Origin: Psammoneis japonica
Lineage: Eukaryota
Assembly (NCBI GenBank): GCA_008632985.1
Contig: QPGO01000095.1
Coordinates: 1 to 58,219 of the forward strand
Direction of reading: 5' to 3'
Length of the DNA: 58,219 nucleotides
Shown here: positions 2,336 through 39,214 of the stretch, one piece after another
Position numbering within the stretch: position 1 is the first letter of the stretch
Layout of the letters: each line of letters begins with the position of its first letter
Notes under the pieces: model-generated
Told to the model about the DNA's origin: nothing
The model's input: only the letters and a program-made list of their open reading frames with translations
Databases searched by the model: none
Translations under genes and position numbers: made by a program

Positions 2336-2749
2336 TTTGTTCATGACAAGAACGACACGACGGCTACTAGATATTTGGAAATGCACAAAGACGCAAGAGA
2401 TTTTGCGATTCATTTATACGCTTTAGAGATTTTGATATGGCACATTGAGATTCTGCATGCATGGTTTGTGTGAGAAGGAGCAAGCGTATGCTTTGCAAAT
2501 ACAACGAACTTTTGGCGAAATGTAGCTTGTGATTTTTATAGCACGACACATGTGATGATTCGAGACAGTGCTGTAGCTAACGACACATATTATGAACATT
2601 AGAGAGAACATGAAGCAAATCTAGTTTTTCGTTCGCCAATCCTGATGCATTAGGCTCGAGAGGGAGTTCAAACTATTTCTTGTGCTGTCTCTAGAGAACG
2701 AGTGCAAGAAGTGATTGGGTCTATTTCATTGGTGCGACGGGCCACCACA

Positions 2750-4300
2750 TGTCTTGTCATGGAGACGCGTCATTAGATTCTTTTTGAATGCTGCATTCGC
2801 AAAAATGGAGCCAACACCATTTGCAATGAACCGGAACTCTACCCAATGGCGAAAGCTGCCACCCAATTCACTTCTTTCAACACCTCGCATACAACATCCC
2901 CAGCAGGTGACATTGACACGCTCTCCACCAAAACTGAGACGAAGCACTGTTCTCTTCAAGCACATCGGGCAGCCCCCACTTCGGTGGCAAGCAATGGTCA
3001 TTGTGCTCGTGCACATGACCTCCATCCTTTTTTGGCATGTGTGACTGGCACACACACAACCTTGAAGTTTGACAAAGCAATTCAGCAGAAACCTTGAGGA
3101 TGACAACAGAGTCAGGTTGGATCTTGTCACCTCCAATGGCATCATGGCCTCAAGCTTCCTTCCTCATTTGTGTTGTTGGCTGTGCAAGCAAACCAAAAGA
3201 TTGTCCAGGAGTTGTTCCAATCCATTGTGACCAAAACAACACAGTTGTTTTTGGACCCCCACTTGCTTCCTTTGGCTCTCAGTTGCTTCATTGGGGGTGC
3301 TCTCCTTTGCCACATCAGCAGCTGGGTTTGGCCTGACATCACCCTCCACATTTGAGAAGAACTTGATTAGATTCTTGATTGTTTCTGGCTTCTCATTGGG
3401 AGCATCAATGACAAAGAACTTCCTGGTCATTGTCATCAGAGCACGAACATCACAAACCTTTTGCGTCTTTACAGCCTGCTCTCAAGCTGCTCAAGCCATG
3501 AACCACCTCGTCTGTTGCAGCCATGCCAGAAGAGCAGGAGGGCATCTCCAAAGCCATGCAGTTCAGGGCCAACTTTGGATCGCCAGTTGGCAATCAGCCT
3601 TTGCGGCCATCACAAGGAAGACACCACACAGTCGCTTGTCCTGTGTGTGTCAGCAAGGGGAGAAATGGGGGGCATTCCCAATCCAAGAAAATGCAGTGAA
3701 CCAAAGTGAAAAATGTTGGGCAAGATCAGACAAGAAAGACAAAATGAGGTTCAAACCACCACACTGAATCGCACCCAAGCTGCTGCTGCTGCCTGCAAAC
3801 ACGCCGCCAAACTGGCACCCTTCCTTTGCTGAAAATGCTGTCTCATGGCAGTTGGTGGTCCAGAAGAGCTTTTGCAACAAGAGGTTTCTGACCCACCATT
3901 TCACTTGGAATGGGGTTTTCAGGCTCGCGATGCTTGTCTTTGTTTGGAGATCTGCACCCCCAAGCCGATGCTGCTCTTCAAACAGCTTTTGGTGCCACGC
4001 TGCTGCCCTGATCCCTTTTCTCAAATCAGCCACACATCAGCGCCATCTTGCACTTCCACTTTGTCCTCCAATGCACCACCAAGCTTTTGCCAAACAACAA
4101 TTAATTGCCATGGTGTTGGGGCTCTTGAAAAGATGGGGCAGCGTGATGTGTGAGTGCGCAGCGGACTTCGCGCGGCGCGCGCAAGGATTTGTGTCATATA
4201 GCACATCAACCCAGTTCAGAACACCTTGTCGCACATCTTTGCACTCCATCGATTGAATCATCATCAGAATCCTTTTGCTCTTTTTTTTTTGTTTCCATCT
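2750..4300. mobile_element. Degenerate repeat/TE-like block, TpA- and CpG-depleted
   Basis: Few TA or CG, excess CA/TG, only broken ORFs. Segment 3851-3956 is homologous to 7881-7985. Boundaries approximate. Confidence 0.55.
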
Positions 4301-4368
4301 GTCATTTTGAATTCTGATGGGCGCCCGAACTTCTTTTGGCTGTTATTTTTGCAATCACTTAAGAGACC

Positions 4369-5298
4369 ATGACTGAGAACATGTTAAGCCGCTTAATCTG
4401 GGTGTTGATTGGAGTGGCGGTCTTGGCGTGCACTCGCATCAGCCCCAAAGTGCATCTTGTTGACGTTTCCGTCCAAACTCTGGCAAACGAATTAATCGCC
4501 GTGAGCCTCTTGTGCGCGTTTCCCTTTATCGCTTATTCTCTCTTGGGCAAAAAATCATGGACCGGCATGAGTCTTTCGACAGATGAAAAGCAGTTGATTG
4601 AGGGACCCCCGGGGCACGTTGTTGGTGCTTATTTATGGCTCCTTCTTTCGGCATTGCAACTCTTGACGTTCAAAAAATACCCGGTTTGGCACAAGCGAGT
4701 AGGAAAGATCGTGTTACTGGGAGTGCTTCCAGCATGTCTTTTGGAGATTTCGACCAACGCTGTTCGAGTTTTCGTCCCCAGTAAACCCAAGTACTTGGCT
4801 CATGTAGTTTTACAAAAGAAAGATATTTCCTTGACAGAAATTGCCGCTTTTGTTCAAGTCTTTTCGGTTCCGCTGCTGTTGCCAGTAGGCGTCGCTCTAC
4901 ACGCTTACTTTGCGGCACGGAGCATTTGGAACAAGACAGATGAAAATAGGATTCGTCTTCATGCACATCATCTCATGTGCGCTGTGGCGTGGATGCTCGG
5001 ACCTGGGCAGTTTCGGTTCATTACCAAGGCCTTGTTTACGCTTGAATGGGGCGGCTGCCGCGAACACACAGGAAATCCTCTGGACGCCATTGTGGTGCAA
5101 ACGATTTCCTTTCTTCTAGCGGAAACCATCATTTTGTTTTTTAAGAACCGAATATACATGACGCTGCCACCTGCATTGAAAGAGAATGCGGTAGTGGAGG
5201 GGATGCGAAAGTTTTGGATCTGGGTCTGCATGCACCAGATCATAGCATGCGCAATTTTGGGTGTTGACATTGTTCCAAATTGTCAAACGGAACAATGA
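4369..5298 (+). CDS. Multi-pass membrane protein, DUF2306-like
   Basis: Intact 309-aa ORF with several hydrophobic helices. GHVVGAYLWLLLSALQ...WHKRVGK and a later ARSI...RLHAHHLM resemble the His-containing motifs of DUF2306 proteins (recalled pattern). Confidence 0.65.
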   Translation: MTENMLSRLIWVLIGVAVLACTRISPKVHLVDVSVQTLANELIAVSLLCAFPFIAYSLLGKKSWTGMSLSTDEKQLIEGPPGHVVGAYLWLLLSALQLLTFKKYPVWHKRVGKIVLLGVLPACLLEISTNAVRVFVPSKPKYLAHVVLQKKDISLTEIAAFVQVFSVPLLLPVGVALHAYFAARSIWNKTDENRIRLHAHHLMCAVAWMLGPGQFRFITKALFTLEWGGCREHTGNPLDAIVVQTISFLLAETIILFFKNRIYMTLPPALKENAVVEGMRKFWIWVCMHQIIACAILGVDIVPNCQTEQ

Positions 5299-5649: not shown

Positions 5650-8250
5650 GCAGCTCACCATTTGCATGGAGGCATGGATAGAGGCCTGGCTACATCGATT
5701 GCTTGAAGCCACAAAAGGCAGTCAGTAAGAGAGATAACTGCAAATGCGCATCCATTAATTCCTGCAACTTTCTCCATTGCTTTGCAGACCAGTGAACAAC
5801 TGACACCCCAAAGAAGTCATCCAGTTTGGTGTCACTCACTGAATGCCACAATCCCACACCACTTTTTCCCTGCATCACCTTCCCACAGATGAGAAAACTC
5901 TTTCTAAAGATTCAATCAAATGCAAACACTGCTGGGATGGTGTTCCCCTCCTTCAGCTGGCACCCACACAACAACCTGCTTCCATCCACACCCCAAAAGG
6001 CAATGATGATGTTGCATGCCTCAAGCCAGGCATGCCCAGGACACAGCAGATGGACAAAGCACACATCCCAACTGGTGCCCAGCCTCAGAGAGGGACACAA
6101 TGCCTTCAACAAAGTCAACAGGATTTGCATCTTTGAAGAAGTCAACATCATAAAAGTTGCCCTCACTCACACTCAGTGGGAAAAGCAACCACCCCTTTGA
6201 GGCATGTTCATCCAGCCTCTGCCCATGCTCAATTTTTCTGCAAATGCAGAACCCACCACCACACACAATTCATCCAGCATTTCATGCTGTCTGTTGCCTT
6301 TGTGTGCAAGCTTTCTTGATCAGCAGTTCTGTGTTGTTGCCCTTGACTCTAACTTTGCTCTGCGTGTGGTGCTCTCCAGGTCCAGAGCCAACTCAGCCTC
6401 TTTTGCATGACAAACACTCGTGCTGTTGTCCTCCAGAGACACAGCAGCTCCTTTCCACAAGGCCAAAGAACCAGAAATTGCACTTCATGTGGCATCTTGC
6501 AAGTTTTTCATGCTGCAGAACATGCCGTGCCTTTCAGAGCTGCACCTTGAGGACCCTGATCCACAGGATCCTGAAGAAACAGGACCCCAAGGCCCAAGGT
6601 CACAAGTTGTGGCAGAAAACATCTTTGCATCTAAAAGCAGCTTTGCTTGCAAGAAAAGAGTGATGCTTCAATGGCAGCTGGGTTGCAGACTGAGGAAAAT
6701 GACAACTGCCATGAGGCCTGCTTTGGTCTCATTCCTCCCTCTGCTCTAAACCCGACGAGCCTCAGGGAATGCAGGAGCTTTGGATTCTACCTCCAAGCAC
6801 ACAGCACCACAACAAATGGAGCAAAATCATCCAGTCCAATCAAAACTGCTTGATCTGCTTTGGCAACCAATGTCACTGGTTCTGGCACAGTTGGCTCTCT
6901 GCTGGAAGTTGTGATGGCACTCCTTCTGCCTCTCTTCTGGACGGCAATGGAAAAGTCATGAGGTGCAGCGGCAATTTCAACTTCTTGACTGTGGACAAAA
7001 GCACTTTGCAGGACCTCAACGCAAGCTGCAGGCCAGTGAAAAAAAACGCTTGAAGACCTTGTCTCTTCCATTGCAAAAGAAACATTCGAATCTGTTGGAA
7101 ACACATTTTTCTTTCTTAAAATGGGCGCGTTTCTCTGTGTGCCACATGAAAGAGAAAGTTTCCTGGAGAAGAGATTGTCTCTGGCACAAGGATTTAACCA
7201 AGGAAGCAAGATCCACTGATCAGTCCCTGGTTTCACACAGTGGCTTCTTGTCAGTGCTCCAGCGGAGGATTGGGGAGAGGCCCAGCCAAAATGCTTGCTT
7301 GACATCACAAAACACATGGGAGCAAGCGAGGCACCTCTGCAAGCATGCACCCACTCATTCCTGCAGCTTCAAATGGCAGATGCCCCAAAGAAGGTGTTCG
7401 TCACACCAAGTTCCAGAATCTCGCACTGCTTCTTCCCCATGTCACCTTCCCTCAGATGAAAAAACTTTTTCAAAGACTTGGTCAAATGCAAACGCTGCTG
7501 GGGTGGTGCTGCCCACCTTCAGCTGGTGCCTGTGCAACAGCCTGCTTCTGTCTGCACCCCAAAAGGCAGCAATGAAGCCTGGACAGACAAAGTGCACGTC
7601 CAGGCCAACACCCTGCTTTGGAGAGGGACACCTTCAATGAAGAAAACATGCTTGTTGTTTCCCAGCCAATCTTCAACTCACTCTTCCCTGACAATTTTGG
7701 CTCTGAAGAAATTGAAAAACTCTCTGTTTTCATTGTTGGAGGGCCCAGCGGGTCTTTGGAAGCTGCAAGTGCAATCTTGACATGACAAAGCCACGCCAGA
7801 GGGCTCTGCTCTGTGTGGTTGCTGCTGCCGAGAAAGCTCTGGCCCCCTCCTCTTCCGCCCTGCTCTGCTGCTGTGTGGCTGTTGGTGGTCCAGAAGAGCT
7901 TTCACAATGAGAGATTTTGGAGCCATTGCATTGCTGTGAATGGGGTTGCAAGGCTCAAGATGTTTGTTTTTCTTCAGATCTGCATTGACAGCCACCCAAG
8001 ACCCGGAGCTCCAAAGGGCCAGAGCTCTTCAACAACTCTTTGATGCGATTGCTTGTTTCTCTTTGATCTTAACCCTTCGATTTGCCACAGTGCGCATGTT
8101 AGGGCCATTTTCCAAGGATGCACAATCCACCGATGATGCGAGGTCAAGCTTGTGCGAGAAACGACCATTGCCATGGTGTTGGGCAAATGGCAAACAACAT
8201 TGCCACACCCGGAGCTCGAAATAGCTCGCATGGTCGATTTTGAGCTTTAT
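5650..8250. mobile_element. Degenerate repeat/TE-like block with internal duplication, TpA- and CpG-depleted
   Basis: Nearly devoid of TA and CG. About 5862-6115 is homologous to about 7430-7642 (both translate as ...HLP(T/S)DEKT(L/F)SK...KCK(H/R)CW...QQPAS.(H/C)TPKG). Boundaries approximate. Confidence 0.6.
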
Positions 8251-13228: not shown

Positions 13229-14820
13229 ATGACAAAGTCGAGGGTTCTCGCGATCCCAATCTTGCTTTTCATCAACAATCCGGCGAATGCACTTGTTCCC
13301 ACGCATCCTTGTTCCCAGCAAAAGCATCACCCATTTCTTGCTTTGGCATCCACAGCAACGTTGGAGCAAGAAACAATCCAAGAAGAGTCTTTGCAAACTC
13401 CTGCTGAAAAGGAAGACTTAAAATTTGAGTGCGACGAAACGGTTCAATTCTGGAGAGACTTTCAACGAAATGGACTCGAATCGGCAGATTCCAACCTTCG
13501 AGAAATTGCGAGAATCTCCCGAGACTTTGCACAGTCAGGTCCAGACGGCGTGGGTTATTGGTTGGTGAGTGCGCATGGGATATTCTGTTTGCAACAGTGT
13601 GATGTATTGCTTGCGTTACAAAGAATTTGCTTTCTTACATGCTTTTCTGGGCTATGCGCATGCTTTCCTCTGTAAATCGCATGACTTGAACTACTTTGTG
13701 CAGCGCCACATGGGTCGTTCGGGATACTTTTTCGTAAATGCTGCACTCGGGGTTTTGGGATCTCGTCTTGTACAAAGCTTGGAGGGAGGTGCATCAATCA
13801 AGGGCCCAGTTCGAAACTTGGATACTGCTATTGTGTCTCGTTTGGTATTGGAATCTGCGCTTTGTTTTCAACAAGATTACAAGAGGATCCAAGAGGGACT
13901 GTATCCCAAACCCTGGGACATGTATTACAATAGACGACAGGCAAGTCCTATCTACGCAGCTACACAGACGGGTCGATTTCTGAGAGAAGCTATTGATACG
14001 CTACAACGACGAACTCGTGGCACCAGCGAGGACAAGCGAATCAACCTTTCCAATGACGAAATGTCATCCTTTGCCTACCCTGACTATTATCAGACTGCTT
14101 TTCACTATCAGACCAACGGATGGATGTCAGAAGAGTCTGCCAATGTCTATGAGACATCAACCGAAACCCTGTTTGTTGGTCGACAAGATGCCATGCAGCG
14201 GATTGTGCTGCCAGAGCTGGTCAAATTCTCACGGGAACGAAAAAAGACACTCGATAGACCCATCAGGATTCTGGAAATTGCCTGTGGCACTGGACGCTTC
14301 ATGACGTTTTGTCGCGATTCTCTTGCGCTGGATACCAAATACACCGCAATCGACCTGTCGCCTTACTATTTGGATGTGGCTCGAGACAATGACGCCAACT
14401 GGAGAACGAGTCGACAACGAATCGAAAGACAACGCGGCAACAGTAGAGTGGAAATTCCACAAGCTGAACTTGTTCAAGCCAAAGCCGAGGATCTCCCGTT
14501 CCAAGAGGGCGAATTTGATGCAGTGTGTGTGTCTATTTGTTTCACGAGTTGCCACGATCTGTGCGAGCTAAAGTCGCAGCTGAAGCGGCGCGTGTCACAC
14601 AACCTGGTGGGTTGGTTGTCTTTTGCGATTCTGTGCAATCGGAGATCGTCCCATTCTGAATGACAAAATTGGAAACTTTAAAGAGATGAACGAGCCACAC
14701 TATGAAGACTACATTTCGGATGACATCTTTTCTCACTTTGAACGAGCTGGACTTCTTTGTGGAAAGAAGATTGTTGCTTCCACCACCAAGGCGTTAACTT
14801 TTACAAAGCCAACTGTATAA
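13229..14820 (+). CDS. Class I SAM-dependent methyltransferase, probably plastid-targeted (copy 1; intron 13565-13703; frameshift near 14525)
   Basis: Motif I ILEIACGTGRF, AIDLSPYYL, AKAEDLPF, upstream FHYQTNGW. Signal peptide ending ANA-LVP. GTGAGT...CAG intron keeps the frame. Confidence 0.88.
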
Positions 14821-15265
14821 ACGCTTTCTTTGGTAACAAAATGACCGGGAGTTTCTGCTTATTTGTATGCCTAAGAGCTCAACGAGACGTTCGGAGCTGG
14901 AAATGCGATTTGTCACACTTGGAAGTGACAGGCTTGAGAAGTAGATGATACACGAGCCTCGGAGTAGCTCGAGATTGTAATTAGTATTTGGCAGAGGTCA
15001 TGTCTACTGCAAAACTCAATGGTTCAAATTCAAAAGCTCTGCTGCACATAGTACAAAGGGTAATACGGTAGCGCTCAAACATAGCTGTGATATTCCATTG
15101 CCGTTCCTGACCATTCTTTTTTTCTTTATTCCATGCTAATTACCAGGAGTCTCTAATATCATTGGCTTCGATTGTGAACGGTGATTCATACTGATCACTA
15201 GTGGGCTTAGTAGCGGGTGTGCAGGGATATGGAATAGGCACATCATGTGAGCGGGGCAAGGCGCT

Positions 15266-16944: not shown

Positions 16945-18542
16945 GTTGTAATGTCCGATGTTGTTCTTGCATGTTGTGCTGTCTGTTTTGCTACGACGTT
17001 TGCTTGTTGCTTGCGTCAGCACTGGGTGTTTTCGGTGCTCTTACTGAACAATTGAGAGCTCTACTATTTCCCCCGATTTCGCAATTCTCTTCGGCTATAT
17101 CCAAAGCATGAATAAGATAGAGGCGCTACAGGTGCAAAAAGGATGAAAAAGGAAGAAGAGGCGGCAGGAAAATTGAAAGAGAGGCCCGTCACGCCGTCAT
17201 GGTGCTTCGCGGCTTGGGATGTCGGCATGTCGCGCGCTGTTGAGTAAAATTGTTATCATGTATGGCCTCGTGCACTGTTCGAGGCCGGGGCGTGAGGCGG
17301 GCAGGCGAGCGCGATCGCGATGCGAGCATCAGCACGCGATGCGATCGTCACACACAAAAAGCCAACGCGGCAGTCAGAAGCCATTGCAACACAAACATGG
17401 CCAATGCAATCATGCACCTTTCTATTTTGACACATCAAAGTGGCAGCTCCATCAGAACAACATGCTGTCACTGGGAGAGACAGCCAGATTGCAGCAGGAC
17501 TTTTTTAGTTCATCTCCACTGCCGACAAATGGAGACGCTCTTGATTGGCGCGCAAAACCCACCCAGCCAAAAATGAGGCCAGCACAAAAAATTTAAAAAC
17601 ATCATGTCACACAACAATGTGTGAGCAGACCATCTTTCATAACTTTGAGCAATTGGAGCCTGTCTTTGTGTGAAGCTGTGTGAGGAGCCCAGAGGATCTC
17701 CTCTCTGGCAGCTCTCTCTCTGCGAGGCACTGCAAGCCAAACTTGCTCACCCCTGCCCACATTGGAAGAACCAAGATTGCCATGTCCAATGCCAAAGTCA
17801 ACTCAAACACCACAAGCAAGACACAGAGGGGCTCCATCCAAAACCTTGGGACACATGTTGTAACACCACTTGGTGAGTCCCTGTTGTGTGTGTTGCCACT
17901 GAGATCAGAGCCAATTTGTCAATGAGGAAGCCACCTTGTGATGCTGCCCATCTGTGATGAGTCCATGCAGTGGTGAAGATGATCTGATTCATCTTTCAAG
18001 CATCATCAAAAACCACCCTTTTTTGTCAAAACAATTGGTGTTGGGGATCACTCCTCCAATGCTTGCAAAGCATGTCAGCTTTTAATGCCCCCCACTCATC
18101 AGAGCGCGAAATGTGGTGATCCTGACCACCCTTCTCATGGGCAATTTTTAACACTGTCACAGGCACAAATGCAATGCTTTCCTTTTGAGAGAGTTGTGTA
18201 GAACGTGATTTTTTGTCATGTGTCATGGCATGCCTTTTTTCACCATGGGACCCCTCCTTTGCCCATGGGACCCCTCCCTTGGCCATCAGATTTCCGTCAC
18301 TTTTTACCTTTTGAAAGCGATGTTCAAAACGTTTTGTTCAATGCTAAATTGATGCTGATCATTGCGATGCATTGGTTTTAAGAAACCTTCCATTTTGTGC
18401 ACTGGTTGTCAAATGAAAGGTCAGATCACAAAACAATGATCCTTAAAATGCTCCATTGAACCTTGTGACTGTTTGCATTGAAACCCACTGCATTGCTCAT
18501 TCTCTTTCCATTCTCACACTAACAAAAGCCTCCGGCACCTTT

Positions 18543-19777
18543 TCACACCGCAGCTCGCTCAACATCTGCATCTACACTTGCATTGCTTCCCGCATCACTT
18601 TCCTCCTCCTCTTCCTCGCTCTCCTCATCTCCTCTGTTCTCGTCCGTTGCCTCTTCCTCCTTCTCCTCATCGTCACTTGAAAGCTCTGTCGTTGCCTGTG
18701 TTCTTGCCTCCTCCACCGGCTTTTTCTTTCTTTTTGATCCCTTGCCTCTTTCGTCACTCTTCCTTTTTCTTGCCTTCGCTGTGCCATGTGTTGAACTGCA
18801 TGCCCTCCTCACTCAACCTGTCTTTCTTTACTTCCGCAAGCAGTTCGTTGAATCGCAATGTCCCTGCATCCTTCCACGAGTCTCGTTGCCTTGACGGGTC
18901 CACGCACTTGGGTGTTGGTTCCAACTCTTCCTCATCCTCTTCGTCCAAGCCTCCCCCCGCTCCAACAGTCTTGTCATGACGTGCCTTGTGCTCCCCAACA
19001 CTCCCAGCAGTTTTCCAATGTCAACAGCGCTAGAGCCTCATCGCTCGCTGCAGCCAGACCGGTTGCCTTCGTCTCACCCGACTCAACCTTCCTTCTCCAT
19101 GTCGTGGTGCTCTTCGTGAATTTCAGGATGTTTTTGTAGAGCCAAGCACATGCTTCCTTGTTTTTGCGCTTGTCCTCCACAATCGTTGTCACTGTCTCCT
19201 CCTCCCAAGTTGCCATGAACGGCTCTTCCTCTTCCGCATGATCATTCTTCTTCCTCTTCTTGCCCTCCCTCCCTCCTCCTCTGCCTCTTGATGCCGGCTT
19301 CTTCTGACTGCGCATCTCCTTGGCTTCACTCTCTGTCAACACGACTTCAGCAAATTAAGGTGCAGCAGCGTCAAGTGCAAATGCACTCAACATGCCATGC
19401 ACCACAAAACACTTGCCAGCCGTTGCATTGTTCTTGATCGCCTGAGTGACCGTGCTCCTTTTTGCGTTAATTGCATGCATGACGCACTTCTTTGCCCAGT
19501 CCTCCCACGCTCCCACCCAGTCTCGCTTGCCACAATTGCCACCGGCCATCTTTTTCCTGATGAGCCGTGACACTTTGCCACTGCTTGCCATGTCCGCCTT
19601 GACAAGGAACTTTGCCTTTGGGAAAAGTTCCTTCTGCGCCACCTCTTCCACCTCTCTCTTTGTGGACTGGTGATCCCCAGTGGCTCCCACCTGCACCAAC
19701 GCCGCTGCTGGCCTTGGGCTTGTTGGTTGATCTTCTTTCTTCTTCTTCCTTGCCATTGCCTGTTCCGCTGTTGCCAA
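18543..19777 (-). pseudogene. Element-borne gene with SDEALALLTLEN.W..W and W...G..RFNEL...V..DR motifs; intron 19416-19333
   Basis: The motifs resemble an accessory ORF I recall from stramenopile DNA transposons (unverified). A phase-1 intron with GCAAGT donor and GACAG acceptor joins two ORFs in frame; the gene is disrupted near 18974. Confidence 0.5.
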
Positions 19778-22700
19778 TTGTGGGTGGCTCCATGCCTTGT
19801 GTCCCCAGTCATTCTTGCCGTTGGGAAATTTTCAAACCTCTGATGCCAAAAATCTTGTGCTTCCCACCAATGATTCCTTTTTCTCAAATGCAACACAATG
19901 GAGAATTGACCAAATCTTTTGATGTGCGCACAATTTGTCTAATTCACCACTCCTTGTCATCTTGTGAAAATTTTGAATCCCTGCGAATTCTAGTTCAAAC
20001 CTCTCTCTTTTGCTGCAATGTCAAAATCCACTTCCATGGCACAAACAGCTTGCACAAGCAATTTGCTCAAAACATCATTGTGAAACGTGCACCTGTAAAA
20101 GTCATTTTCACCACAATGAACAAACCCCTCATCTGCTTTAACGACATTCTGGTTTGCTGTTGGTGCCTGAGCACATCCATCCTTTTTGGCGCCAAATCAT
20201 TTTGTCTGGTCCAGTTCGTCATCTCCCTCTAACCTTGCAACTCTCCACCTGATGTGTCACCCGTCGTTGGAACAGTCAGTCATTTTGGTGAAAGCTCTCG
20301 TCTCCGCTCCGACCATTCTCACGAATTCGTTCACTTCAACGCGACGACGTCTCTCCACCCAACGCTTTTCCTCTCTCCTTGTGTGAAAGTTCTCCCGCTC
20401 ACCATCCTCCTTCCTGACAATGTCCAGCATCCATTCATTGACCATCCATGCAGACAACCTGAAGAACTCCATTTGCTCACAGAACCAAAGTCTTTCATGG
20501 TTGTCTCGCACGATGTCATGCTGGAACCACTTCGCCAGTTTTAATGCATCGCACACAATGCCCTTCTTGTCCATTGCCAGTCCGCAAGTGCCTCCCCTCA
20601 CTGATGTTTCTCCCAACGGTCCGCAAGTGCCAGTCTCGTCCATGCCACAGGTCGGCAAGCTGACGCTCGAATGGCGTCTCAATCTCAAAACGTCTCCCCT
20701 GTCAATGACTGGTTTTGTGTCATCACACGCACCCGCTGCAAATTGATCCCTCAGCTCTTTCTCTCCTTCGTTGTGCCAAGCACTGTAGATGCAGCACATC
20801 CTTCCTTGCCTGTCTTGGTGAGTCGCAACGCAGTCCCAACAATCCGGGTGCTGGTGAGCATCAATCCCATGGTTGACGACGCCATTCAACCAGTCCAGGT
20901 TGTCGTGAATTGAGAACATGCCTGTGCTGGCGTGCATGCACTCAATTGCTTCTGTGCTCCAATCACTCACATGTTCGTGCACCCAAACCATGTGGTTGCA
21001 CCTCTGCTTCCACAGTTCCCGCCACTTTTCTTGGATGTCCTCCTCATTCATCATGCAACACAGGTCCATCGCGTCACGGCGCAGGTGCGGGTTAACCGCA
21101 TGTGTGCTGCTCTCAAACTTGATCACAGCTGTGCCCGTTTCATCAGAATGCACCATCCCACCTTGTGGCAAAGATTGCATCAAACGATCCAATTCATCAA
21201 AAGCCGCCTCATGCTCCGATTCCATGATTGGTTGCCTTCCCTCTTTCGTCATGTTTGTCAAAGTTTCAAATCTCCTCCAGCAGTCATTTGGCCAATGCGC
21301 CGTCAAGCGGTCATTTTGTACAACAGCATTCATTGTTGATTGCAACGTTTGTGTCTGTTGCTGCAGTGGGTGTGGGAGCACCCCTCCTGGACTTCTTGCC
21401 CTAAAGCATCACGGCACATCACATCACAACTTACTTTCTCCTTTCCGTAGAAAAACAACCTTTGTAGAACCAACATGAGACGAATCTCACTGAAATCTGC
21501 TCCCCGGTCTGCCCAAGCATCACACGCCACCTTGCGCCATTGTTCCATTAAGTTGGGACAGAACTCGTGGGTGCCGACATTGTCGTTTATCCAGAGAAGC
21601 ACAGCACAGATTTCTTCCACCATTTTGTCAATGAGGTCATTCGCGGTGCCTGCAGACGCAGGGTCTAGAAACACATCGGAAAATTTCTCGTGCGTCAAAT
21701 TGGTGGGGCTGATCCTTCCCACCTGTGGGTCTCCGAACAGCACGCCAAATGTGTTCATCAAATGATCGGCAAAATTCACAAATGGGTCAACACCTTCGCA
21801 ACAAAGGTTGGGAAGATGCACGTCCCCCACACAGTAAAAATGGTGGCATCCGGTGGGATGACCCGCATGGATCGCCAAACGGATGACTCGTTTTGGGTCG
21901 GGCCCAGATCGGCACACAATGTTTTTGAAACGGTGGAGCACTGTGACTGGGGCAGACAAGTGGAAGTCCCTGACTGGGAATGTCGGGAACTTGAGCCGGT
22001 CCATGTGCACCTCAACGCAGGAAGAATCGCCGCCTCCACCAATTGGAACATTGTCCCATGGCCTGTTGTCGTCAAGGGAAAGATGCTTGAACGCACTGCT
22101 GGAATGCGACACATCGGGGTGGGTGGGACCATCGTGTTGCAAGTCCAAGTCTTTAAGTGCAAAATCAAGCTGAGCTTGATTGTGGTGCATGTGAGTGAGC
22201 ACAGGCTTTATGTCGCACTGGTCGTTGCAGCATTCAAAAATGGTGGCTCTGCTGTTGGTGACAACCTTGAAGGACCAGATGTCACCAAAGGCATCCACAA
22301 TGAAAAAACAACCTGCGGCTGTCTTCCTGCAGCGACGCCAGATGCAGTTTTTTTTGTCATGGTGACCATCACAGTCTTGACCCCGGGAAATGCACAATCC
22401 CTGCATGGCAACGTCCTCGCGTTTAAAGAAAAGACAGCCCATCTCCTCGCCCAACTTTTTTTGAGTGCTCCTCATGCCAAAGCGACCAGTCAAATGGTGG
22501 GGGATTGCTCAGTTTCCGCAGCTCTACCTCATTTTCGCAAAGCTGAATCGAGTCGAGGATGTCGGCTGCCATCGCCTTGATTTTGGACGACTCGTTTGCG
22601 TCAAAGTCATCATCGGACTCAAAGACATCAAGTCCGCAAGTGGCCTTTGGTTCAGCCAGTTTGGCAGAACCAGGCGTCTTTGGGTGACATGCTCTCCCTG

Positions 22701-24631
22701 CACAACCGAACTTCATCCTGCGTCCTTCTACGTTTTGAACTGCAACCGGTCCGTCACGATTCAAATCGGACTCTCCCTTCAACAGAACAAACAGAAGAAG
22801 GGCAGGAATGCATGCACGAAGGCACCCGAAGTGCCCTTTGTACAGAGAGCTAGCCTGTCGGGCAACAGAGAGTTCCTCGGAGAAGTGATCAAGGTTGGGA
22901 GGGCACTCGGTTTGAACACAAGATGCGGCGGTGGAATCACATGGAGGTGCATTGTTTGAGAATGTGCGCCAGTTTTCCCGCAAGGACCAGTGTTGGTGGC
23001 TTTGTCAATGATGTGCAGGTGTGACAAATGAGAAGAAACTTCCTTGGTGGTGGTGGGCCGACACTTGGACGGGTCGAAGAGAGCACGGAGTGTGGACTGG
23101 TCCAGCCACGACATGTCGTTGGGGTCGCTGGGAGGAGACGCAACCACGGGAAGATTGGCTGAAACAGAAGGAGGAGAGGAATGAGGTTGGGATGAAGGAC
23201 CTTGGGAGGTGGAAGTGGGTTTTAGGTTTTCCACAATTTCTGAGAGTGACGGAAGGTCGGCAGTGAGAGTGCGGTGTGCCTCCCTGGATGACGGAACATT
23301 GCCAGAAAGCAAAGGAGGTGCTTGTTTGTTGCGAGATGGTGGCTTGGCCTTCTTGTTGGGAACGGTCAAGGAAGGCTCTGGTGGGTCGTGAACAATCATG
23401 GGGTGTGAGAAGAGACACTGAGACAACAGATGCCGGCAAAAAGGTGGAAGGCGCGAGGTGGGGGGGGGGTTGCTTGCCATCGTACAAACAGGTGCCATCT
23501 TTGTGGGTCCTCCTAATTTTGCGTTTGGTTTTGGAGTTGTAGATTCGTTTGTTGTCGTCTTCCATGCAGTCGGCCCTCTGATCACGCATTCTGCAATGGA
23601 GCATTGTGAGCTGCTTGCTGCACCCAGGTTGGATGCCAATTTGATCCTTGGGACAACCCTTCCCAAATTCGTGATTCAACATGGAATTGATTTTTTCTTC
23701 ATGAGCCTCACGGCGTGCAAGGGAATCGCCTTGCATCATCACTGTGTTCTTAATGTCACCGGATTGGTCAGCAAGGAAACCTTGATCTTGTCCACCTGGG
23801 CACCAGGATTGCCAGTGTCGCATGCAACCAGAAAGCTGTTGACAAAGAGGCGCCATTCCTTTTGGGTTTTGACATGACGGAAAATCTTCAAGAACCAACA
23901 GTCCATGTCCTTGGGCTTGCACTGAACGCAACACATGACGATGTCAGTGACAAAACAGGCACTGTGGCAGTCTTGGGCTCAATCGTTGATCAAACTTTGG
24001 AGACTTTTGCACTGTAAAAATCGGAAACAAGGCTTGCCGGATAAAGGATTGTTTGGGTCGTCTCCGGTGATGATCGCACAAACAAATTCCACCATCACCT
24101 GGATGTTGCGGTGGAGAAGCACACGGTTCTGCTGTTCTTTTTCTGTCTCTCCGGATGTTTTGGAGAAATGCAGAGCCTCCTTGAGATTTTTACACCGCAG
24201 GACACATTCACCTTTCACTCGGCGGGATTTCTCAATGGACCAACCACGAGTCATGATGCAGGACCAAATGTCGGGGTGGCCAAGAGTTTTCCTTGCAACA
24301 TCATTGGCGCGGATCACTTCGGCAACACAAGGAACATGGCGCAACTTCGGCTTGTGACAAAGGAAGGGAAGAGCAAGGAATTCTGGAGAGGGGGTCCAAT
24401 TCGTCGACTCCAAAAACTGCTTTTTGGAGGCACGCGTTGCAGTTGTGCTTTTGAGCTTGGGTTCGAATGATTCGAGTCCAAAACTGTTGGTGAAACATTC
24501 CATTTCATCAAAATTGCAGTCCTTGGAAATTTGGAAAGAAGGGTCGGGGTCGACCTCGTCGTGAGACAGGGTAAAGTCATTGGACGCCATGGCCAACAGT
24601 CAGATGCCGATTCACGTAGAATGCACAGGAA

Positions 24632-24688
24632 TCACAACAGTGCACCCTCTCATCAAATGCCATTTGAGGAGAGGGTGCACTGTTGTGA
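24632..24688. repeat. Near-perfect 28-bp inverted repeat (hairpin/cruciform)
   Basis: tcacaacagtgcaccctctc-a-tcaaatg c catttga-g-gagagggtgcactgttgtga: one mismatch, 1-nt spacer. Confidence 0.9.
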
Positions 24689-25139
24689 AATGGGTGGAGT
24701 GTTGCGCATGTAGAAAAGGTGCCAAAATGCAGGTGGGGAGCTGTTGGCTGGAAAACTGGTGGGTGCAGGTGGAAACAATGAGCCAAGCACTCGTGTGGCC
24801 AACTTGGGCGTAAAAGAAATTGCATGGTGACGTGGTGACGCAAGGCTGCGGTGGAGCCATTGAAAATCACCATCAAAGTTGACGTTTCCATGAATGTGTG
24901 AAAATTTAATCAACAGAAAATGCATTGTTCAACAACAAATGAGATGTTGACAGTGTTTGGCAAATTTAATTCAAAACAAAATGGCGACAATTACAGACAT
25001 AAAAAGGCAACACCAAATTCAAATTGACTGCAACATTTGAAATTGAATTTGACTGACAACACCATGCTTTTGTCAAATTAAATGTTCCAAAATTTCCAAA
25101 GGAAAGTGAACAACACCACATTGCGGCCTCTGATGCTCG

Positions 25140-25995
25140 CAGGTCATCAAAATGCCATGCAGCAGATTGTGCTGCCAGAGTTTGTCAAATTTGCCAATGT
25201 GTGCAGGAAATCAGACCAACTGATGTTCTTAAAATTGTGCATGGTGCTGGATGCTCCACAGTGCTTTGTCAAAAAGGTGTCTTTCACTGGATGCAAAATG
25301 CACTCCTCTGCAACTGGCCTGTGTTTCACCTGATCACCCGGGTGTGTGGCAAGAGAGGATGACAGCACCAGCCGGATGGAGAGAGAACACATTGACAGCA
25401 AATTGAAAGAAAACACAGCTCAATCAACAGCAAATCAGACATTCTATTCACCTGTTGAACTCATCCAAGCCAAAGCTGAGCATCTGTCATTCCAAGAGGG
25501 TGAATCTAACACACAGTGTTGTGGGCCCCATTTGATGCACGAGTTGAACCAAAATGTGTGAGCTTAAGTGGCAGCTGAAGCAGAGCGTGTCTCACAACAG
25601 TGTAGATTTGTTGTCTTTTGCAATTGCATGCTCAGAGATCGTCCATGAATGACAACACTGGAAATTTTAAAGAGATGAATCAGCCACACTGTGAAGATTG
25701 CATTTCAGATTATCATGTCTTATCTCACTTTGAACGAGCTGGACTTCTTTGCGGAAAAAGGTTGTTGCTTCCACCACCAATAAGGCTTTGACTTTTACAA
25801 AACCAACTGTGTGAACGCCTTCTTTGGAACGAAAATGAAATAGAGTTTCTGCTCATTTGTGCAGCAGGCCTATGAAGTCAACGAGACGTTCGGAACTGGA
25901 AATGTAATTTATCACACTTGGAGTGACATGCTTAAGTAGATTGTATCCGAGCCTCGGAAGTAGCTCCAGATTTGAATTGGTACTTGGCAGCGGTC
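25140..25995 (+). pseudogene. Decayed 3' fragment of the SAM methyltransferase gene (copy 3), including 3' flank
   Basis: Aligns to about 14180-14998 (NAMQQIVLPEFVKF versus DAMQRIVLPELVKF; QAKAEHLSFQEGE versus QAKAEDLPFQEGE) and to the 3' UTR of copy 1. It has stops and indels, and the 5' part is replaced by the TpA-poor element. Confidence 0.85.
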
Positions 25996-26269
25996 TAAAG
26001 TAGGATTTTCATTGCCGTCCTGTCATCTAGGATTCTATCAATCCCCACAATCCATGAGAGTGCCGTCGTAATCCGTGGGTATAGCCATTCCCGTCTCTGC
26101 AACTCTGAGCGAGAATTCCGAATGAACCTCACCGCGACTTGGTCGACACAAGAATGTGACATGCGTGTGATCGAGCCGGGAGGAGTAGTTACACGAATGC
26201 CCGTGGCAAGCTTGAGGGATGCGCCGTTGCTTATCCACTCAAAACAACCAATGGATGGATACCAAACGT

Positions 26270-29982: not shown

Positions 29983-31625
29983 ATGGCAAAGTTGAGGATA
30001 GTGGCAATCCCATTCATGCTTACCATTCCAGGGTCGCTGTCCTTTGTCCCGGCTCATAATGTTAAGATGAGGCAGGGTTCATTTCTTCCTTCGACACTGG
30101 CATCCACAGCTAGGTTCGATCTAGAGAAAGCAATCCACGAGGAACCGATCGAGGTCTGGAGAGCCTTTCAACGAGATGAAGATGGCTTCGAATCTACGGC
30201 GACGTTACACCCAGAGAATGCAAGACAAGACGTTTCATCGCAAACTCCTGCTGAAAAAGAAGACGTAAAATTTGAGTGCGACGAATCAGTCCAGTTCTGG
30301 CGAGACTTTCAGCGAGACGGCTTCCAATCTGCAGATTCTAACCTTCGAGAAATTATGAGAATCACAAGAGATTTTATGCAGTCGGGTCCAGACGGCTTGG
30401 ATTATTGGTTGGTGAGCAGGAGAATGAGGGTGCAACTTGTGTTTTTGCGCAATTCGCTCTCTTACACACATGCTCTTTTTTGCTTCGATGCTTTATACTT
30501 TGTTCATAGCGTCACATTGGTCGCATAGGTTACTTTTTCGTTAATGCTATTCTCGGGATTCTGGCCTCGAGCCTTGCACAACGCTTCGAGGGAAGCGCAA
30601 CCGCAAAAAATCCATTTCGAGAATTGGATATATCAATCGTATCGGAAACCGTTTTGGAATCCTCGCTTTGTTTCGAACAAGACTATAAGCGAATCAAAAA
30701 GGGACTCTATCCGAAACCTTGGGACATGTATTACAACACTCGGCAAGCAAGTCCTATTTACGCTGCCACTCAGACGAGTCGATTCATCAAGGAAGCCATT
30801 GCTACCCATCAGCGACGAGTCCATGGCACCAGCAAAGACAAGGCGATTCACCTCTCTAGCGACGAAAAGTCATCATTTGCCTATCCTGAGTATTATCAGA
30901 CTGCCTTTCACTATCAAACCAATGGATGGATGTCAGAACGGTCTGCCAATGTCTACGAAACATCAACGGAAACCCTATTCGTAGGTCGGCAAGATGCCAT
31001 GCAGCGGATTGCGCTACCAGAGTTGGTCAAATTTACCAAGGAACGCAAGAAGTCACTCGACAGACCTGTCAACATTCTTGAAATCGCATGCGGCACCGGA
31101 CGCTTCATGACGTTTTGTCGAGATTCTCTTCCACTGGATACGAAATACACCGCAATTGACCTGTCGCCTTATTATCTAGATATGGCTCGAGAAAATGATG
31201 CCAACTGGAGAACATGTCGTCAACAACTCGAAAGAAAACGGCACGAAAGCGGAGTAGACATTCCAGAAGCTGCAATTCTCCAAGCCAAAGCGGAGGATTT
31301 GCCATTTCAGGAGGGTGAATTTGATGCAGTGGTATGCAACTACTTGTTTCACGAGTTGCCACGAGCGATTCGAGCTCAAGTGGCATCCGAAGCAGCACGT
31401 GTCACTCGACTGGGTGGATTGGTTGTCTTTTGCGATTCCACCCAACTTGGTGATCGTCCCGTTTTTGATGATAGGGTGGGCCGCTTTACAGAGATGAACG
31501 AACCGTTCTATGTTGATTACATTTCGGATGTCGTGTTTGATCACTTTGAACGAGCTGGACTTGAATGCGGAACAAAGATGGTGGCTTCACTTTCCAAATC
31601 ATTGACTTTCACAAAGCCATCTTGA
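29983..31625 (+). CDS. Class I SAM-dependent methyltransferase, plastid-targeted (copy 2, intact; intron 30412-30509)
   Basis: Paralogue of 13229-14820 with the same intron position. GSLS-FVP presequence; ILEIACGTGRF and YLFHELP; spliced frame is continuous. Confidence 0.9.
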
Positions 31626-32064
31626 GCCGACGTGTCATTTTGCTATATGGGGGGATTACGTATAAACGTATCATCGGTCATCGGGGGTCTTCTATAAGCT
31701 ACATCCGTTCTCTGACATTTTCGATAGAAAGAAAAAGCAATGGTCACGTGTGCGTATGCATGTTCACATGCTAAACTGAGCAGCCCACGTGTTCGCCTCC
31801 TTTCAAATGCAACACGGATCAAACGAGACCGTTGCTGTTGAATGAGAGGTCGTCGCTCGACGACACGCCGCCTACTCTAGCTACAACTAGTAGCTGCTTA
31901 GAGGGCTACTATCTATTCTCTAATCTAAGCTACTACTAGGCCTCTCTCTATCAACTTAGTAGTACCCAACTTTAGCGTATGTCCTATGGTATTCCTTAGA
32001 TAGCACTAATCTACAATTCTTTGTTGTATTGTCTACATTTATCCTCCACAATAACAACTACTAT

Positions 32065-37099: not shown

Positions 37100-38750
37100 T
37101 TGGGGTTTAATTGATGGCATGTGCAGGTACGCATTGAAGTCAAGCAGACTCTTGAAGGGAGGAAACAAAATGGTGAAAAGGTGAAAGCACAGCGTGCCTC
37201 AAACCGGTTTGTGAGAGAAAATCATGTGTGCCAACGGCTTGAAGGATTTTTTTGTGCTTCTTTGGGTTGAAAGCAGGCAAAGTTGAGCAGTGTGTCGCAC
37301 AACATGTGTCTGGCCATGCATCTCCTGATGTCATGTCTGTGAGAATTCATTTGGGTCTCCCTTGGCACTCGGGCTCACACTTGATGCAAGCACCACAAAC
37401 TCATTCGTGTGACCCTTGACACAACCGGCAAGAGCAAACTCATTCAGGTCATCATTCATTTCTGCACACTGTTTTCATTGGCTGAAAGCTGCAGAGCTGT
37501 TGGCAGTTCTGCTTCCATGAGAATGCTGACACTGCAAAAAATCCTCTTTTGGATGATGAGACATGTCACCCTTGACACTCGGTTTCATTGGGGTGAGTTC
37601 ATTCAAGCCACGTGTCACCCTTGACACTCGGCTTCATGCAGGTGTAAATTTCATTTGGGTCATCACTTGTTTCCACACACTTTGCTCACAAAATTTGCCC
37701 TTTGCAAACATTCATTTGCTTGTCATCAAAACATGTTGCACAGCAATCTCACAATTGCGGAGCTGTTGGCATTTCTGCTCCCCACACAAATGCTGACAAT
37801 GCAAGTGATGCTCTCTGTTGGATGATGAAAACATCAATGCAACTGCAACAAGGGCTCTTAACAGCAGTTTCCACCATTGCATTGAATGCATCCGCCTTGT
37901 GTTTGTCTCCTTTTTGGACAAGGAATCACATGGCGGAAATGCGTCTGGCAAGCTGATTGTTGTTAGTTGACTTCAGATGCATGCAAAATGATGATCAGAT
38001 CACAGCACATTAAGATGTTCTGTGTTTTATGAAGCCAGCGAGGCCTGTTCTTGTGGAACAATTGAAAGCCAAAAATGCATGTGTTTCAGAACAAGACCCA
38101 TTTGTTTGCTGTGTGGTGCTGGGTTGAGCATGAAACTCTTTGACCTGCCACCTCAAATTGGAAACTCAACTTTGCACAACAAAATTGACGAGCCAATTGC
38201 CTGATGACAGCTCATTTTGTCATTCTTTTTGCACACACGTGCACAACTTCTGACAAAAATGTCATTGCACTTGAGCCCCAATTTTTCTCTTGCATCTTTT
38301 TTGCTTTTGTCCATGCAAATCATGCTGAGATGACCTGCAGATGACATTGGAGTCTGGTGCTTCAAATGACCACATCATCACATCATCATTTGCATCTCAA
38401 GTGTGCTGGCGCACAAACTTGTTTGCTGTGTCCCTTCAACTTTGACATGATGCTCTCCAAACATCTGCCAGAGCAGGAATCAGATTTCACTGGAGTCATT
38501 TTTTATTGTGGGCATCTGTCCACCCCCCACTGCCGGCACATGCTTTTGGCATGCAAATGATTCCCATGTGAAGATCTCACAATTGACCAATCCAAAACAA
38601 AAAAAATTTGCTCAAACACAGAAGCAACACATTGGTGGCACACTTGGGCAAGAAACTTCATCAGAAGAGGACAGAAAATTGACAAGCTGTGAAGGAGGTG
38701 TTGGAGTTTGAGAAGTCAGTGGGATCACTCCGAGGGTGGCTTGGAGTCGA
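37100..38750. mobile_element. Degenerate repeat/TE-like block, TpA- and CpG-depleted
   Basis: TA and CG scarce; the short motif (g)tcacccttgacac recurs at about 37410, 37565 and 37614; broken ORFs only. Confidence 0.55.
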
Positions 38751-39214
38751 GGGGGTGGCGGGACAGAGGACGAGGAAGTGTCGGCACGAGTTGCTGCAGA
38801 AGAAGGCTGGACTGGTTGATGGCAGAGAAAATTGAGGAGCCAGTCAAAGATGAGGTGCCACGTCCAAGAAGCTCATCCCGGGCACTGCTGAGGCGAGCCT
38901 TGGTAAGTTGATTGGGGACTGGTGTGATGGGGCAGTCCTGCTGCGAATTCTGAAGCGAAAATGCCGATTTAGTCGTGTTTGTCGCTCAGAAATTCTTGGA
39001 GCCTCACAGATACTGTAGATTTCCACGCGCGCAAATACTGGTACAGCACAAGCACGTGCTTCTCGTTGGGTGCATCTTCATCACTTGCTCCATTCGAGTT
39101 TCATCTCTGATGAGAGGCAGCCAGCGAATGTAACGACACTTCATCCTTGCGCAGAATCGACAGAAACGAAAAGCCCACAAAGGCGAAACTAGAGTATCGT
39201 TTTCCAAAAAAAAA

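Follow-up and report, generated by a model that had tools for sequence, protein, structure and literature searches.

TpA-poor tracts in a Psammoneis japonica contig point to two mutational processes of different speed

TA-poor tracts and the CpG-retaining core

We analysed a 58,219-nucleotide stretch of Psammoneis japonica (Eukaryota) DNA (GenBank assembly GCA_008632985.1, contig QPGO01000095.1, positions 1 to 58,219 of the forward strand), hereafter called the window. The window is gene-dense eukaryotic DNA with a TA-normal background, which is interrupted by tracts that have lost most of their 5'-TA-3' dinucleotides (TpA, or TA). The largest tract encloses, at 18600-24600, the body of a multi-copy element (the core), which is TA-poor and has kept much of its CpG, and the present report concerns the relation between these two losses. 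In 500-bp bins, the genic background has observed/expected ratios (o/e) of ~1.0 for CpG, ~0.5 for TpA and ~1.2 for TG/CA, and the TA-poor islands have ratios of 0-0.2 for TpA and 1.5-1.9 for TG/CA. A two-state hidden Markov model (HMM) on TA density calls six TA-poor tracts (2891-4343, 5757-8221, 17262-25506, 37129-38969, 45097-47218 and 55794-58219). The tracts comprise 18,552 of the 58,219 bases and hold 110 TA, as compared with 1,518 TA in the 39,667 bases of background, a density ratio of 0.155 (binomial p = 1.7e-134); TA o/e is 0-0.17 per tract versus 0.49-0.58 in six background segments. TpA is 6-fold lower in the tracts, while TG and CA o/e are both raised, to 1.36-1.80, indicating that both strands are involved. 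The tract borders are sharp, with TA changing over within ~200-400 bp and the adjoining genes unaffected. The tracts and their parts are as follows.

2891-4343: depleted of TA and CpG; 5 TA (o/e 0.054), 32 CpG (o/e 0.37); open reading frames (ORFs) of chance length, no Pfam match
5757-8221: depleted of TA and CpG; 10 TA (o/e 0.063), 32 CpG (o/e 0.22); no Pfam match
17262-18599: left flank of the core, mostly single-copy, depleted of both; TA o/e 0.16 and CpG o/e 0.26 in 17400-18599
18600-24600: CpG-retaining core (gene remains on the minus strand); 38 TA (o/e 0.107), 250 CpG (o/e 0.648)
24601-25700: right flank of the core, depleted of both; TA o/e 0.145 and CpG o/e 0.32 in 24601-25506
37129-38969: depleted of TA and CpG; 7 TA (o/e 0.052), 32 CpG (o/e 0.33); ORFs below chance length
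45097-47218: the most complete TA erasure of the window; 0 TA in 2,122 bp, 37 CpG (o/e 0.31)
55794-57500: CpG-retaining, TA-poor, holds a 182-bp tandem array; TA o/e 0.196, CpG o/e 0.64
57501-58219: end piece of the same tract; TA o/e 0.105, CpG o/e 0.75

Within one continuous TA-poor tract, the core has a CpG o/e of 0.648 (250 CpG) versus 0.280 (30 CpG) in its flanks (17400-18599 plus 24601-25506; p = 2e-6), while TA o/e does not differ (0.107 in the core, 0.152 in the flanks; p = 0.17). CpG o/e is 0.22-0.37 in the core flanks and four other tracts, and 0.98 in the background. A second, independent HMM on CpG density yields six CpG-poor segments and places the edges of the core at 18532/18533 and 24615/24616, between the CpG-poor segments 17369-18532 and 24616-25881. 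The CpG-poor DNA is nested in the TA-poor DNA: 9,023 of its 9,809 bases are TA-poor as well, 9,819 bases are TA-poor alone, and the 786 bases that are CpG-poor alone all lie at tract edges. A comparison of the two HMMs revealed no CpG-poor, TA-normal tract within the window, and the borders of the two layers coincide to ~200-400 bp.

The original prediction, made from the letters of the window, had described 18500-24600 and 57600-58219 as CpG-rich, TpA-free and occupied by long ORFs, and 5700-8000, 37100-38700 and 45600-47000 as lacking both dinucleotides, with broken ORFs. The contrast itself holds (CpG o/e 0.648 and 0.75 at TA o/e 0.107 and 0.105), and the latter three regions lie within tracts that have indeed lost both (CpG o/e 0.22, 0.33 and 0.31; TA o/e 0.06, 0.05 and 0). 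The wording was too strong: the core still has 38 TA in 6 kb, five-fold below genes, and its CpG is about one third under the genic background of 0.98.

DNA free of TA is without TAA and TAG, so that chance ORFs of ~120-230 aa are normal there, and ORF lengths were tested against 200 dinucleotide-preserving shuffles per tract. The longest ORF of the core has 392 aa, compared with 228 +/- 47 aa in the shuffles (2 of 200 reach 392), and its top three ORFs sum to 1087, compared with 590 (0 of 200). ORFs of 5757-8221 are marginally above chance (the longest, 241 aa, is reached in 15 of 200 shuffles and the top-three sum in 5), and those of every other tract, including 55794-58219, are at or under chance length. 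The predicted long ORFs are thus real in the core; at 57634-58218 the ORF has homologues, although its length is matched in 61 of 200 shuffles and so does not exceed chance. In the doubly depleted regions the label 'broken ORFs' has to be dropped, since ORFs of chance length (marginally more in 5757-8221) and no curated Pfam match give no evidence that these regions ever were ORFs. The Pfam scan covered 106 of the 154 ORFs of >=70 aa in the TA-poor tracts (48 ORFs within 18447-24354 were left out) and gave no curated match, the sole match being a sub-threshold one to BatA.

Homology assigns the following remains to the core, to its right flank, which runs into a dead partial copy of a methyltransferase gene, and to the last tract.

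21345-24560, minus strand: pseudogene of a large P0001/P0002-family protein; tblastn with family members, 24560-23805 and 23141-21345
25100-26010, plus strand: 3' pseudocopy of a methyltransferase gene, compared with live SAM-methyltransferase paralogues at 13569-14663 and 30510-31625
56763-57357: 182-bp tandem array, 3.3 copies, 88% match
57559-58218, minus strand: relic of the C-terminal part of a P0151-like protein (P0151 residues 372-591, 47% identity)

The alignments indicate that the core carries one large dead gene. Specifically, the ORF at 21330-22508 on the minus strand matches one protein, P0001 (613 aa, E = 2e-112), with 53% identity over 424 residues; the reading frame changes between 22462 and 22454. 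With P0001 as query, an exhaustive HMMER search retrieved 194 cluster representatives at E <= 0.001; many of the relatives are 1,100-3,000 aa long, with the matched region C-terminal. P0001 has no Pfam domain and no 2OG-type family at E <= 1, and 19 long family members have no curated Pfam domain, with two sub-threshold low-complexity hits in one protein. No Pfam domain was found in the 12 largest core ORFs, and a homologue search with the ORF at 20260-21408 (minus strand) was without result. A hairpin at 24632-24688 (28-nt arms, 96% complementary, 1-nt loop) lies just upstream of the start codon of the dead gene, at the edge of the CpG-retaining core. In the last tract, the relic at 57559-58218 has one in-frame stop and is cut by the window end. 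Its ORF, 57634-58218 (minus strand), matches P0151 and five more proteins; BLASTP gives no link to the P0001 family, and the six P0151-like proteins have no Pfam domain.

Among the public sequencing runs listed, one of DNA (X1) and none of RNA contains part of this stretch. The X1 contigs, aligned on 17000-26000, bear on the copy number of the core. The 2,181 differing contigs comprise 342 that are at least 99% alike, 554 at 95-99%, 987 at 90-95% and 298 under 90%, and so many different contigs on one stretch indicate a repeated family. Summed contig depth, which is not a copy number, is 624-5,001 over 17903-25126 versus 31-94 and 56-124 on either side, and single contigs without a difference span 17174-18124, 24757-25110 and 25109-25693. 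Judged by these alignments, the core is one copy of a multi-copy element of ~18.1-24.8 kb, set in older, largely single-copy DNA that is depleted of both dinucleotides. No long terminal repeat, terminal inverted repeat or known transposon domain was found in or around the core. A narrower family alignment identified related DNA in three metagenomic loci encoding P0001 relatives. No P0001-family relative was found among viral contigs, three ORFs of metagenomic locus L002 have no Pfam match, and the core's other ORFs show no synteny with the three loci.

Direction, strand and flank context of the TpA changes

Comparison of the two gene remains with their homologues reveals the direction of the TpA changes. 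Eighteen aligned Tyr residues of P0001 read in the window as 8 Cys (TGY), 7 His (CAY), 2 Phe and 1 Tyr, and all six aligned Tyr residues of P0151 read as Cys (three) or His (three). Pooled over these two unrelated homologues, 21 of 24 Tyr have become Cys (11) or His (10). In particular, Tyr134, which is near-invariant among 33 family members, is Cys in the window, and the five family-consensus Tyr codons read as 2 Cys, 1 His, 1 Tyr and 1 Ala. The three metagenomic loci with P0001 relatives have TA o/e of 0.52-0.57, like the window genes, indicating that the P0001 family is not TA-poor by nature.

The dinucleotide balance is consistent with this direction. Relative to genic background, the TA plus CpG deficit is 44.6 per kb in the core, 40.2 in the last tract (55794-58219) and 70.3 in the CpG-poor tracts, and the TG plus CA excess is 32.9, 40.2 and 63.6 per kb, respectively, so that the balance closes approximately. 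The CpG deficit of the CpG-poor tracts, 36.5 per kb, is matched by surplus TG plus CA, and their roughly two-fold product load fits the prediction of two additive layers.

The changes extend beyond the repeat. The contig stretches without a difference, 17174-18124 and 24757-25693, are TA-depleted too, and ~0.4-0.9 kb of single-copy DNA adjoining the element is covered by TA loss. TpA has thus undergone A:T to G:C changes on either strand, in place, over the repeat and its unique flanks. These observations leave next to no room for A-to-I editing of element transcripts by ADAR or ADAT, followed by reverse transcription. In favour of such a route, a U before the edited A is preferred in ADAT-type editing; however, the strands are equally hit (8 Cys versus 7 His in one homologue, 3 versus 3 in the other), editing also reaches single-copy flanks and a dead copy of a gene, and the scanned ORFs (the 12 largest of the core and 106 of the 154 of >=70 aa) contain no reverse transcriptase or other Pfam domain. 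Strand symmetry and edited unique DNA together exclude this route.

The surviving TAs are scattered, not clustered, and depend strongly on their flanks. Survival, defined as the density of a TA word in the tracts divided by its density in genes, takes the following values.

TTAA: 0.75, an upper bound (26 in tracts, 74 in genes)
CTAA/TTAG: 0.39
GTAA/TTAC: 0.19
CTAG: 0.155
CTAC/GTAG: 0.137
GTAC: 0.126
ATAG/CTAT: 0.098
ATAA/TTAT: 0.091
ATAT: 0.021 (1 in tracts, 103 in genes)
ATAC/GTAT: 0.009 (1 in tracts, 231 in genes)

The flank bias is highly significant (chi-square 99.9, df 9, p = 1.6e-17) and recurs separately in the CpG-retaining (p = 3.8e-6) and CpG-poor tracts (p = 3.9e-15). TTAA and ATAT stand at 26:1 in the tracts versus 74:103 in the background (p = 2e-8), and since the two words have the same base composition, this split holds whatever reference is chosen. 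Directly 5' of the surviving TAs stand T in 100 cases, C in 53, G in 47 and A in 20, where local composition predicts 56, 54, 54 and 56 (p = 1e-12). Among TANN words, TAAA survives best (0.44) and TATC, TATA and TACT worst (0.03-0.04), and the order of survival is TAT, TAC < TAG < TAA. Consistent with these counts, both the enrichment of TTAA and TAAA among surviving TAs, which the original prediction had offered as an impression, and the sequence specificity that it would suggest are borne out by the tetranucleotide analysis, in both tract classes. One point counts against taking the TTAA value at face value: the reference is coding DNA, which is probably poor in TTAA, so that 0.75 is an upper bound. 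TTAA can safely be called the most resistant TA word, but not immune.

The pattern looks like the footprint of an enzyme. As TA is palindromic, survivors alone do not tell whether the preference lies at position -2 or at +1. The Tyr codons hint weakly at a pyrimidine after the edited A, in that 6 of 7 His outcomes and 3 of 8 Cys outcomes follow a purine (p = 0.12), and the excess of NTGN and NCAN words, which could distinguish the two flank effects, is confounded by CpG decay and the unknown ancestor.

Relative extent of TpA and CpG loss

Several comparisons indicate that TpA loss is further advanced per site than CpG loss. In addition to the contrast between the core and its flanks, the core gene has changed 15 of 18 Tyr of P0001 to Cys or His versus 6 of 29 Arg to Cys, Trp, His or Gln (p = 5e-5). 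Ten of 15 family-consensus Arg codons are kept (6 as CGN) and 2 read His, and by a hand tally ~130 of 182 family-consensus residues are unchanged, indicating that ordinary decay is modest while TA loss is ~80%.

The 182-bp tandem array permits the same comparison among three full copies, where a site with the same conversion in every copy goes undetected, whether TA or CpG. Nine TA-type sites (27 cells) are detectable; 18 cells are converted and eight of the nine sites affected, four of them bearing both products, TG and CA, in different copies. Only two of the 21 cells of seven CpG sites are converted (Fisher odds ratio 19, p = 8e-5). Array copy 2 (56945-57126) carries a private cluster of G-to-T transversions, with T at 7 of 13 variable non-TA, non-CpG columns where copies 1 and 3 have G.

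On a reading by age alone, the master copy behind the core would have lost its TA before it multiplied, the CpG of the core would simply be young, and the contrast would have no bearing on speeds. The contigs lend this reading some weight. Across 9 kb, 266 listed places separate other copies in X1 from the window (share at least 10%; 203 transitions, 63 transversions), and the 40 places shown include 7 TA-type sites (3 of them TG-versus-CA doubles), 11 CpG-type sites, 7 other transitions and 12 transversions. Furthermore, the 342 and 554 of 2,181 contigs that are at least 99% and 95-99% alike indicate a family that is young yet TA-poor. Against age alone, the count of 266 is a floor, since contigs lose rare variants; the three doubles in the core point to independent edits; and the TA conversions of the array postdate its duplication, as the four TG-versus-CA sites indicate, with few CpG changes beside them. 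Moreover, the edited copy has lost Tyr134 and acquired a frame change, so that an edited master could spread only with help in trans. We therefore regard age alone as unlikely, though the most serious of the competing explanations.

Several observations weigh against a TpA layer that is both fast and fully uncoupled from CpG loss. First, in the core there are fewer TG-versus-CA disagreements among copies than independent saturation predicts, suggesting that an ancestor copy, already edited, may have passed on part of the core's TA loss, which would weaken 'fast' for the core. Second, the methyltransferase pseudocopy in the old flank, where changes were polarised at sites at which both live paralogues agree, shows changes in 5 of 15 TA bases (4 giving TG or CA), 13 of 40 CpG bases (10 giving TG or CA, as C>T or G>A) and 44 of 299 others, which amounts to similar conversion of ~4 of 7.5 TA and ~10 of 20 CpG. 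Third, TA and CpG o/e are correlated over 36 bins of 500 bp (Spearman rho 0.53, p = 0.0009), to which edge bins may contribute. Fourth, survival of C/G-flanked TAs is 0.244 (21 sites) in CpG-retaining but 0.048 (5 sites) in CpG-poor DNA (p = 0.0003), while that of TTAA is equal in both (0.70 and 0.79); the rarity of C/G-flanked TAs in CpG-poor DNA suggests that slow contexts keep losing TA during CpG decay. As an exception to the flank hierarchy, the array retains a CTAT in all three copies, though TAT words are otherwise the first lost.

The pseudocopy also displays the border of hypermutation, which runs through it (comparison with 14360-15010 and 30940-31640). Left of ~25720 lie 41 of the 44 'other' changes and all context-typed ones, which reach ~25707; right of ~25720 the pseudocopy is almost identical to the live genes, and TA and CpG are kept.

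The common borders and the nesting could also reflect a single machine, namely one deaminase acting on A and C that is recruited to silent DNA, quickly at TpA and slowly at CpG. Borders shared to ~200-400 bp and the position of CpG-poor DNA inside TA-poor DNA are as expected of it, and amphioxus and Trypanosoma ADAT2 act on both A and C, as cited in the available text of a preprint on TpA hypermutation of integrated giant-virus and virophage DNA in the alga Bigelowiella natans (Mettrop et al., bioRxiv 10.64898/2026.01.13.699255). However, CpG loss varies 2.3-fold in the window at constant TA loss. In the B. natans mutation-accumulation lines, according to the same text, 230 of 231 changes in hypermutable regions, located in two integrated viral regions, are A>G or T>C, with almost no C>T (10.64898/2026.01.13.699255). 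CpG-specific decay is in any case expected of methylated DNA, and we judge a single machine to be distinctly improbable.

The 2.3-fold range of CpG at uniform TA loss, the nesting, the array and the difference between Tyr and Arg codons all support the proposal of the original prediction that TpA loss is a layer of its own, ahead of CpG loss. Its alternative wording, independence of the two layers, fails in space, as the layers share territories and borders, and full uncoupling is contradicted by the 500-bp bins and the C/G-flanked TAs. The proposed plot of TpA against CpG o/e came out both ways, with no scaling over nine sub-tracts (Spearman rho 0.17, p = 0.67) and scaling over 500-bp bins. 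What is supported in this window is the relation 'same territory, different speed'.

Our preferred explanation, which we consider probable, is that the silent territories between genes are subject to two distinct mutational processes. The first layer would convert 5'-TA-3' to TG or CA (A:T to G:C changes on both strands), on DNA in place; its targets would include, besides the multi-copy element and dead copies of genes, the single-copy DNA next to the element over ~0.4-0.9 kb; and it would strike ATA/TAT first and C/G-flanked TAs more slowly, largely sparing TTAA and TAAA. The second would be ordinary CpG to TpG/CpA decay, slower per site, presumably by deamination of 5-methylcytosine. Because CpG decay would be slower, younger inserts (18600-24600, and 55794 to the window end) would be TA-poor yet keep about two thirds of their CpG, while the older surrounding DNA would have lost both. 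The common borders suggest one chromatin or silencing signal.

Three further observations concern the two layers. A constant-rate two-clock model was tried and rejected: it fits C/G-flanked TAs, but the old tracts hold many more ATA/TAT and TTAB survivors than it predicts. Metagenomic locus L003 (1,042 bases, encoding a P0001 relative) has a CpG o/e of 0.51 at a normal TA o/e of 0.52, indicating that in another organism CpG has decayed while TA was kept. CpG loss is itself uneven by flank: in the core, TCGA stands at 2.67 per kb versus 9.88 per kb in genes, with most other NCGN words near genic level, and in the CpG-poor tracts GCGC is almost retained (3.84 versus 4.44 per kb genic). The genic reference itself may be the unusual side of this pattern.

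The genes and repeats of the TA-normal background are as follows.

Present in the window: a GH20 hexosaminidase, the two SAM-methyltransferase paralogues, a beta-carbonic anhydrase, a class-V aminotransferase (cysteine-desulfurase-like), a 1,408-aa LRR-Roc-Kelch-TIR protein and a zinc alcohol dehydrogenase
39134-43360, plus strand: one 1,408-aa frame joining LRR, Roc/Ras GTPase, Kelch and TIR, possibly an innate-immunity-type receptor; adjoins a hypermutated tract
39328-39757: 84-bp tandem array of LRR units within this frame
52593-53315: 243-bp tandem repeat, 2.9 copies, 88% match, in a long ORF without Pfam match in TA-normal DNA

Candidate enzymes, known systems and meaning

We infer that the first layer would be enzymatic deamination of DNA adenine by an ADAT/TadA-like enzyme, analogous to the ADAT2-like candidate proposed in the B. 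natans preprint (10.64898/2026.01.13.699255). TadA/ADAT2 deaminases and the base editors derived from them resemble the activity seen here in that they deaminate A after U or T. The window itself holds no TadA/ADAT2-type gene. Early TadA-derived editors prefer a pyrimidine after A, which would fit the order TAT, TAC < TAG < TAA and is a lead only.

The attacked base could alternatively be the thymine of TpA. Oxidised thymine is mutagenic, and an oxidised or hypermodified T would mispair with G and give T>C. Because the TA step is palindromic, T>C is not separable from A>G on the other strand, and the signature is symmetric by construction (8 Cys versus 7 His). What brings this alternative into view is the element's own protein family. 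The AlphaFold model of P0001 (pLDDT 85.5, pTM 0.81) contains an H-x-D motif, H123 and D125, that is invariant in 33 sequences. Residues 1-170 resemble the TET dioxygenases NgTET1 (Z 6.3, root-mean-square deviation 4.1, 124 aligned), TET2 (Z 5.7) and CcTet (Z 5.2), with AlkB/FTO-type enzymes ranking lower, and residues 176-512 resemble a phage thymidine-hypermodification enzyme, the 5-PmdU glycinyltransferase (Z 7.4), and AGOG glycosylases (Z 5.5); all of these Z scores are under the caution line of 8. The predicted TET/JBP-like N-terminal domain, followed by a thymidine-hypermodification-like helical domain, should therefore be read as a lead and not as a finding. Were it borne out, the element that has kept its CpG and lost its TA would itself encode an enzyme that modifies DNA bases. 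Foldseek against PDB and BFVD returned no P0001 match at E <= 0.001, a PDB sequence profile search gave nothing below E = 0.06, and the Tet_JBP and 2OG-Fe(II) oxygenase Pfam models matched neither P0001 (E <= 1) nor any of the 33 members (E <= 5). Furthermore, a gene within a mutated element need not cause the mutation, and we rate attack on thymine as very improbable. An XPG/FEN-like identity of P0001, suggested by names in the ESM Atlas (scores <=0.85), was rejected, as the fold search gave no support.

A more far-reaching proposal, which we put forward as a long shot, is that the flank hierarchy is the footprint of a DNA-modifying enzyme of a defence system common to distant algae, and that the element's enzyme starts the chemistry at the TpA thymine or, alternatively, strips the element's own CpG methylation, which would explain the CpG retention of this family.

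A literature search for TpA hypermutation found no description besides the 2026 B. natans preprint, the closest known system. As far as its available text goes, the GC-biased changes of B. natans all fall on TpA, new mutations arise at ~1e-7 per site per generation in some lines, and a TpA-poor subgroup of 324 predicted coding sequences is enriched in reverse-transcriptase and DDE endonuclease domains; the text has 0 occurrences of 'CpG', 'context' and 'diatom' (10.64898/2026.01.13.699255). The likeness lies in the exclusive targeting of TpA, the products TpG or CpA by strand, the regional action against a GC-to-AT bias and the TpA-poor long-term trace. The window shares these marks in that TpA becomes TpG or CpA on either strand, in confined regions with sharp borders. 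Unlike B. natans, its host belongs to another lineage and is known here from sequence alone rather than from mutation-accumulation lines. The targets differ as well, comprising unique flanks, dead copies of genes (one of them a host gene) and a multi-copy element in which no viral or known transposon domain is found, with neither a viral-contig relative nor a Pfam domain to mark any target as viral. The window also adds the second, CpG layer and a measured flank hierarchy. New with respect to B. natans are, accordingly, a different host lineage, targets that show no viral mark, a hierarchy of flanks, and a CpG layer that is separate and whose extent relative to the TA layer is known.

Two further systems invite comparison. 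Repeat-induced point mutation (RIP) in Neurospora and other ascomycetes likewise introduces regional transitions in repeated or silent DNA and spills over into unique neighbours. RIP turns CpA into TpA, so that TpA rises, whereas in the window TpA is down 6-fold and CpA and TpG are up (o/e 1.36-1.80), the opposite of the RIP mark. CpG decay of methylated transposons, together with DNMT5-dependent methylation, is described for diatoms in the available part of the source (PMC9998398). It is like the second layer in turning CpG into TpG or CpA in silent DNA, but alone it cannot remove TA, and in the window it is the slower of the two layers.

These results have several implications. A TpA-aimed mutator confined to silent or foreign DNA has been described once before, in the 2026 preprint on an unrelated alga. 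The coverage of unique DNA beside repeats points to targeting by chromatin territory, not by sequence homology. The footprint, in which ATA/TAT is lost far ahead of C/G-flanked TAs and these far ahead of TTAA and TAAA, is what any candidate enzyme must reproduce in vitro. For annotation, TA-free DNA has few stop codons, so that gene finders will call long false ORFs, and the proteins of edited elements carry Tyr to Cys or His changes, which hide them from family searches. Finally, since the TA layer is separable and further advanced per site, TA loss would be an early mark of silencing and CpG loss a late one, and together they would provide a two-hand clock for dating inserts.

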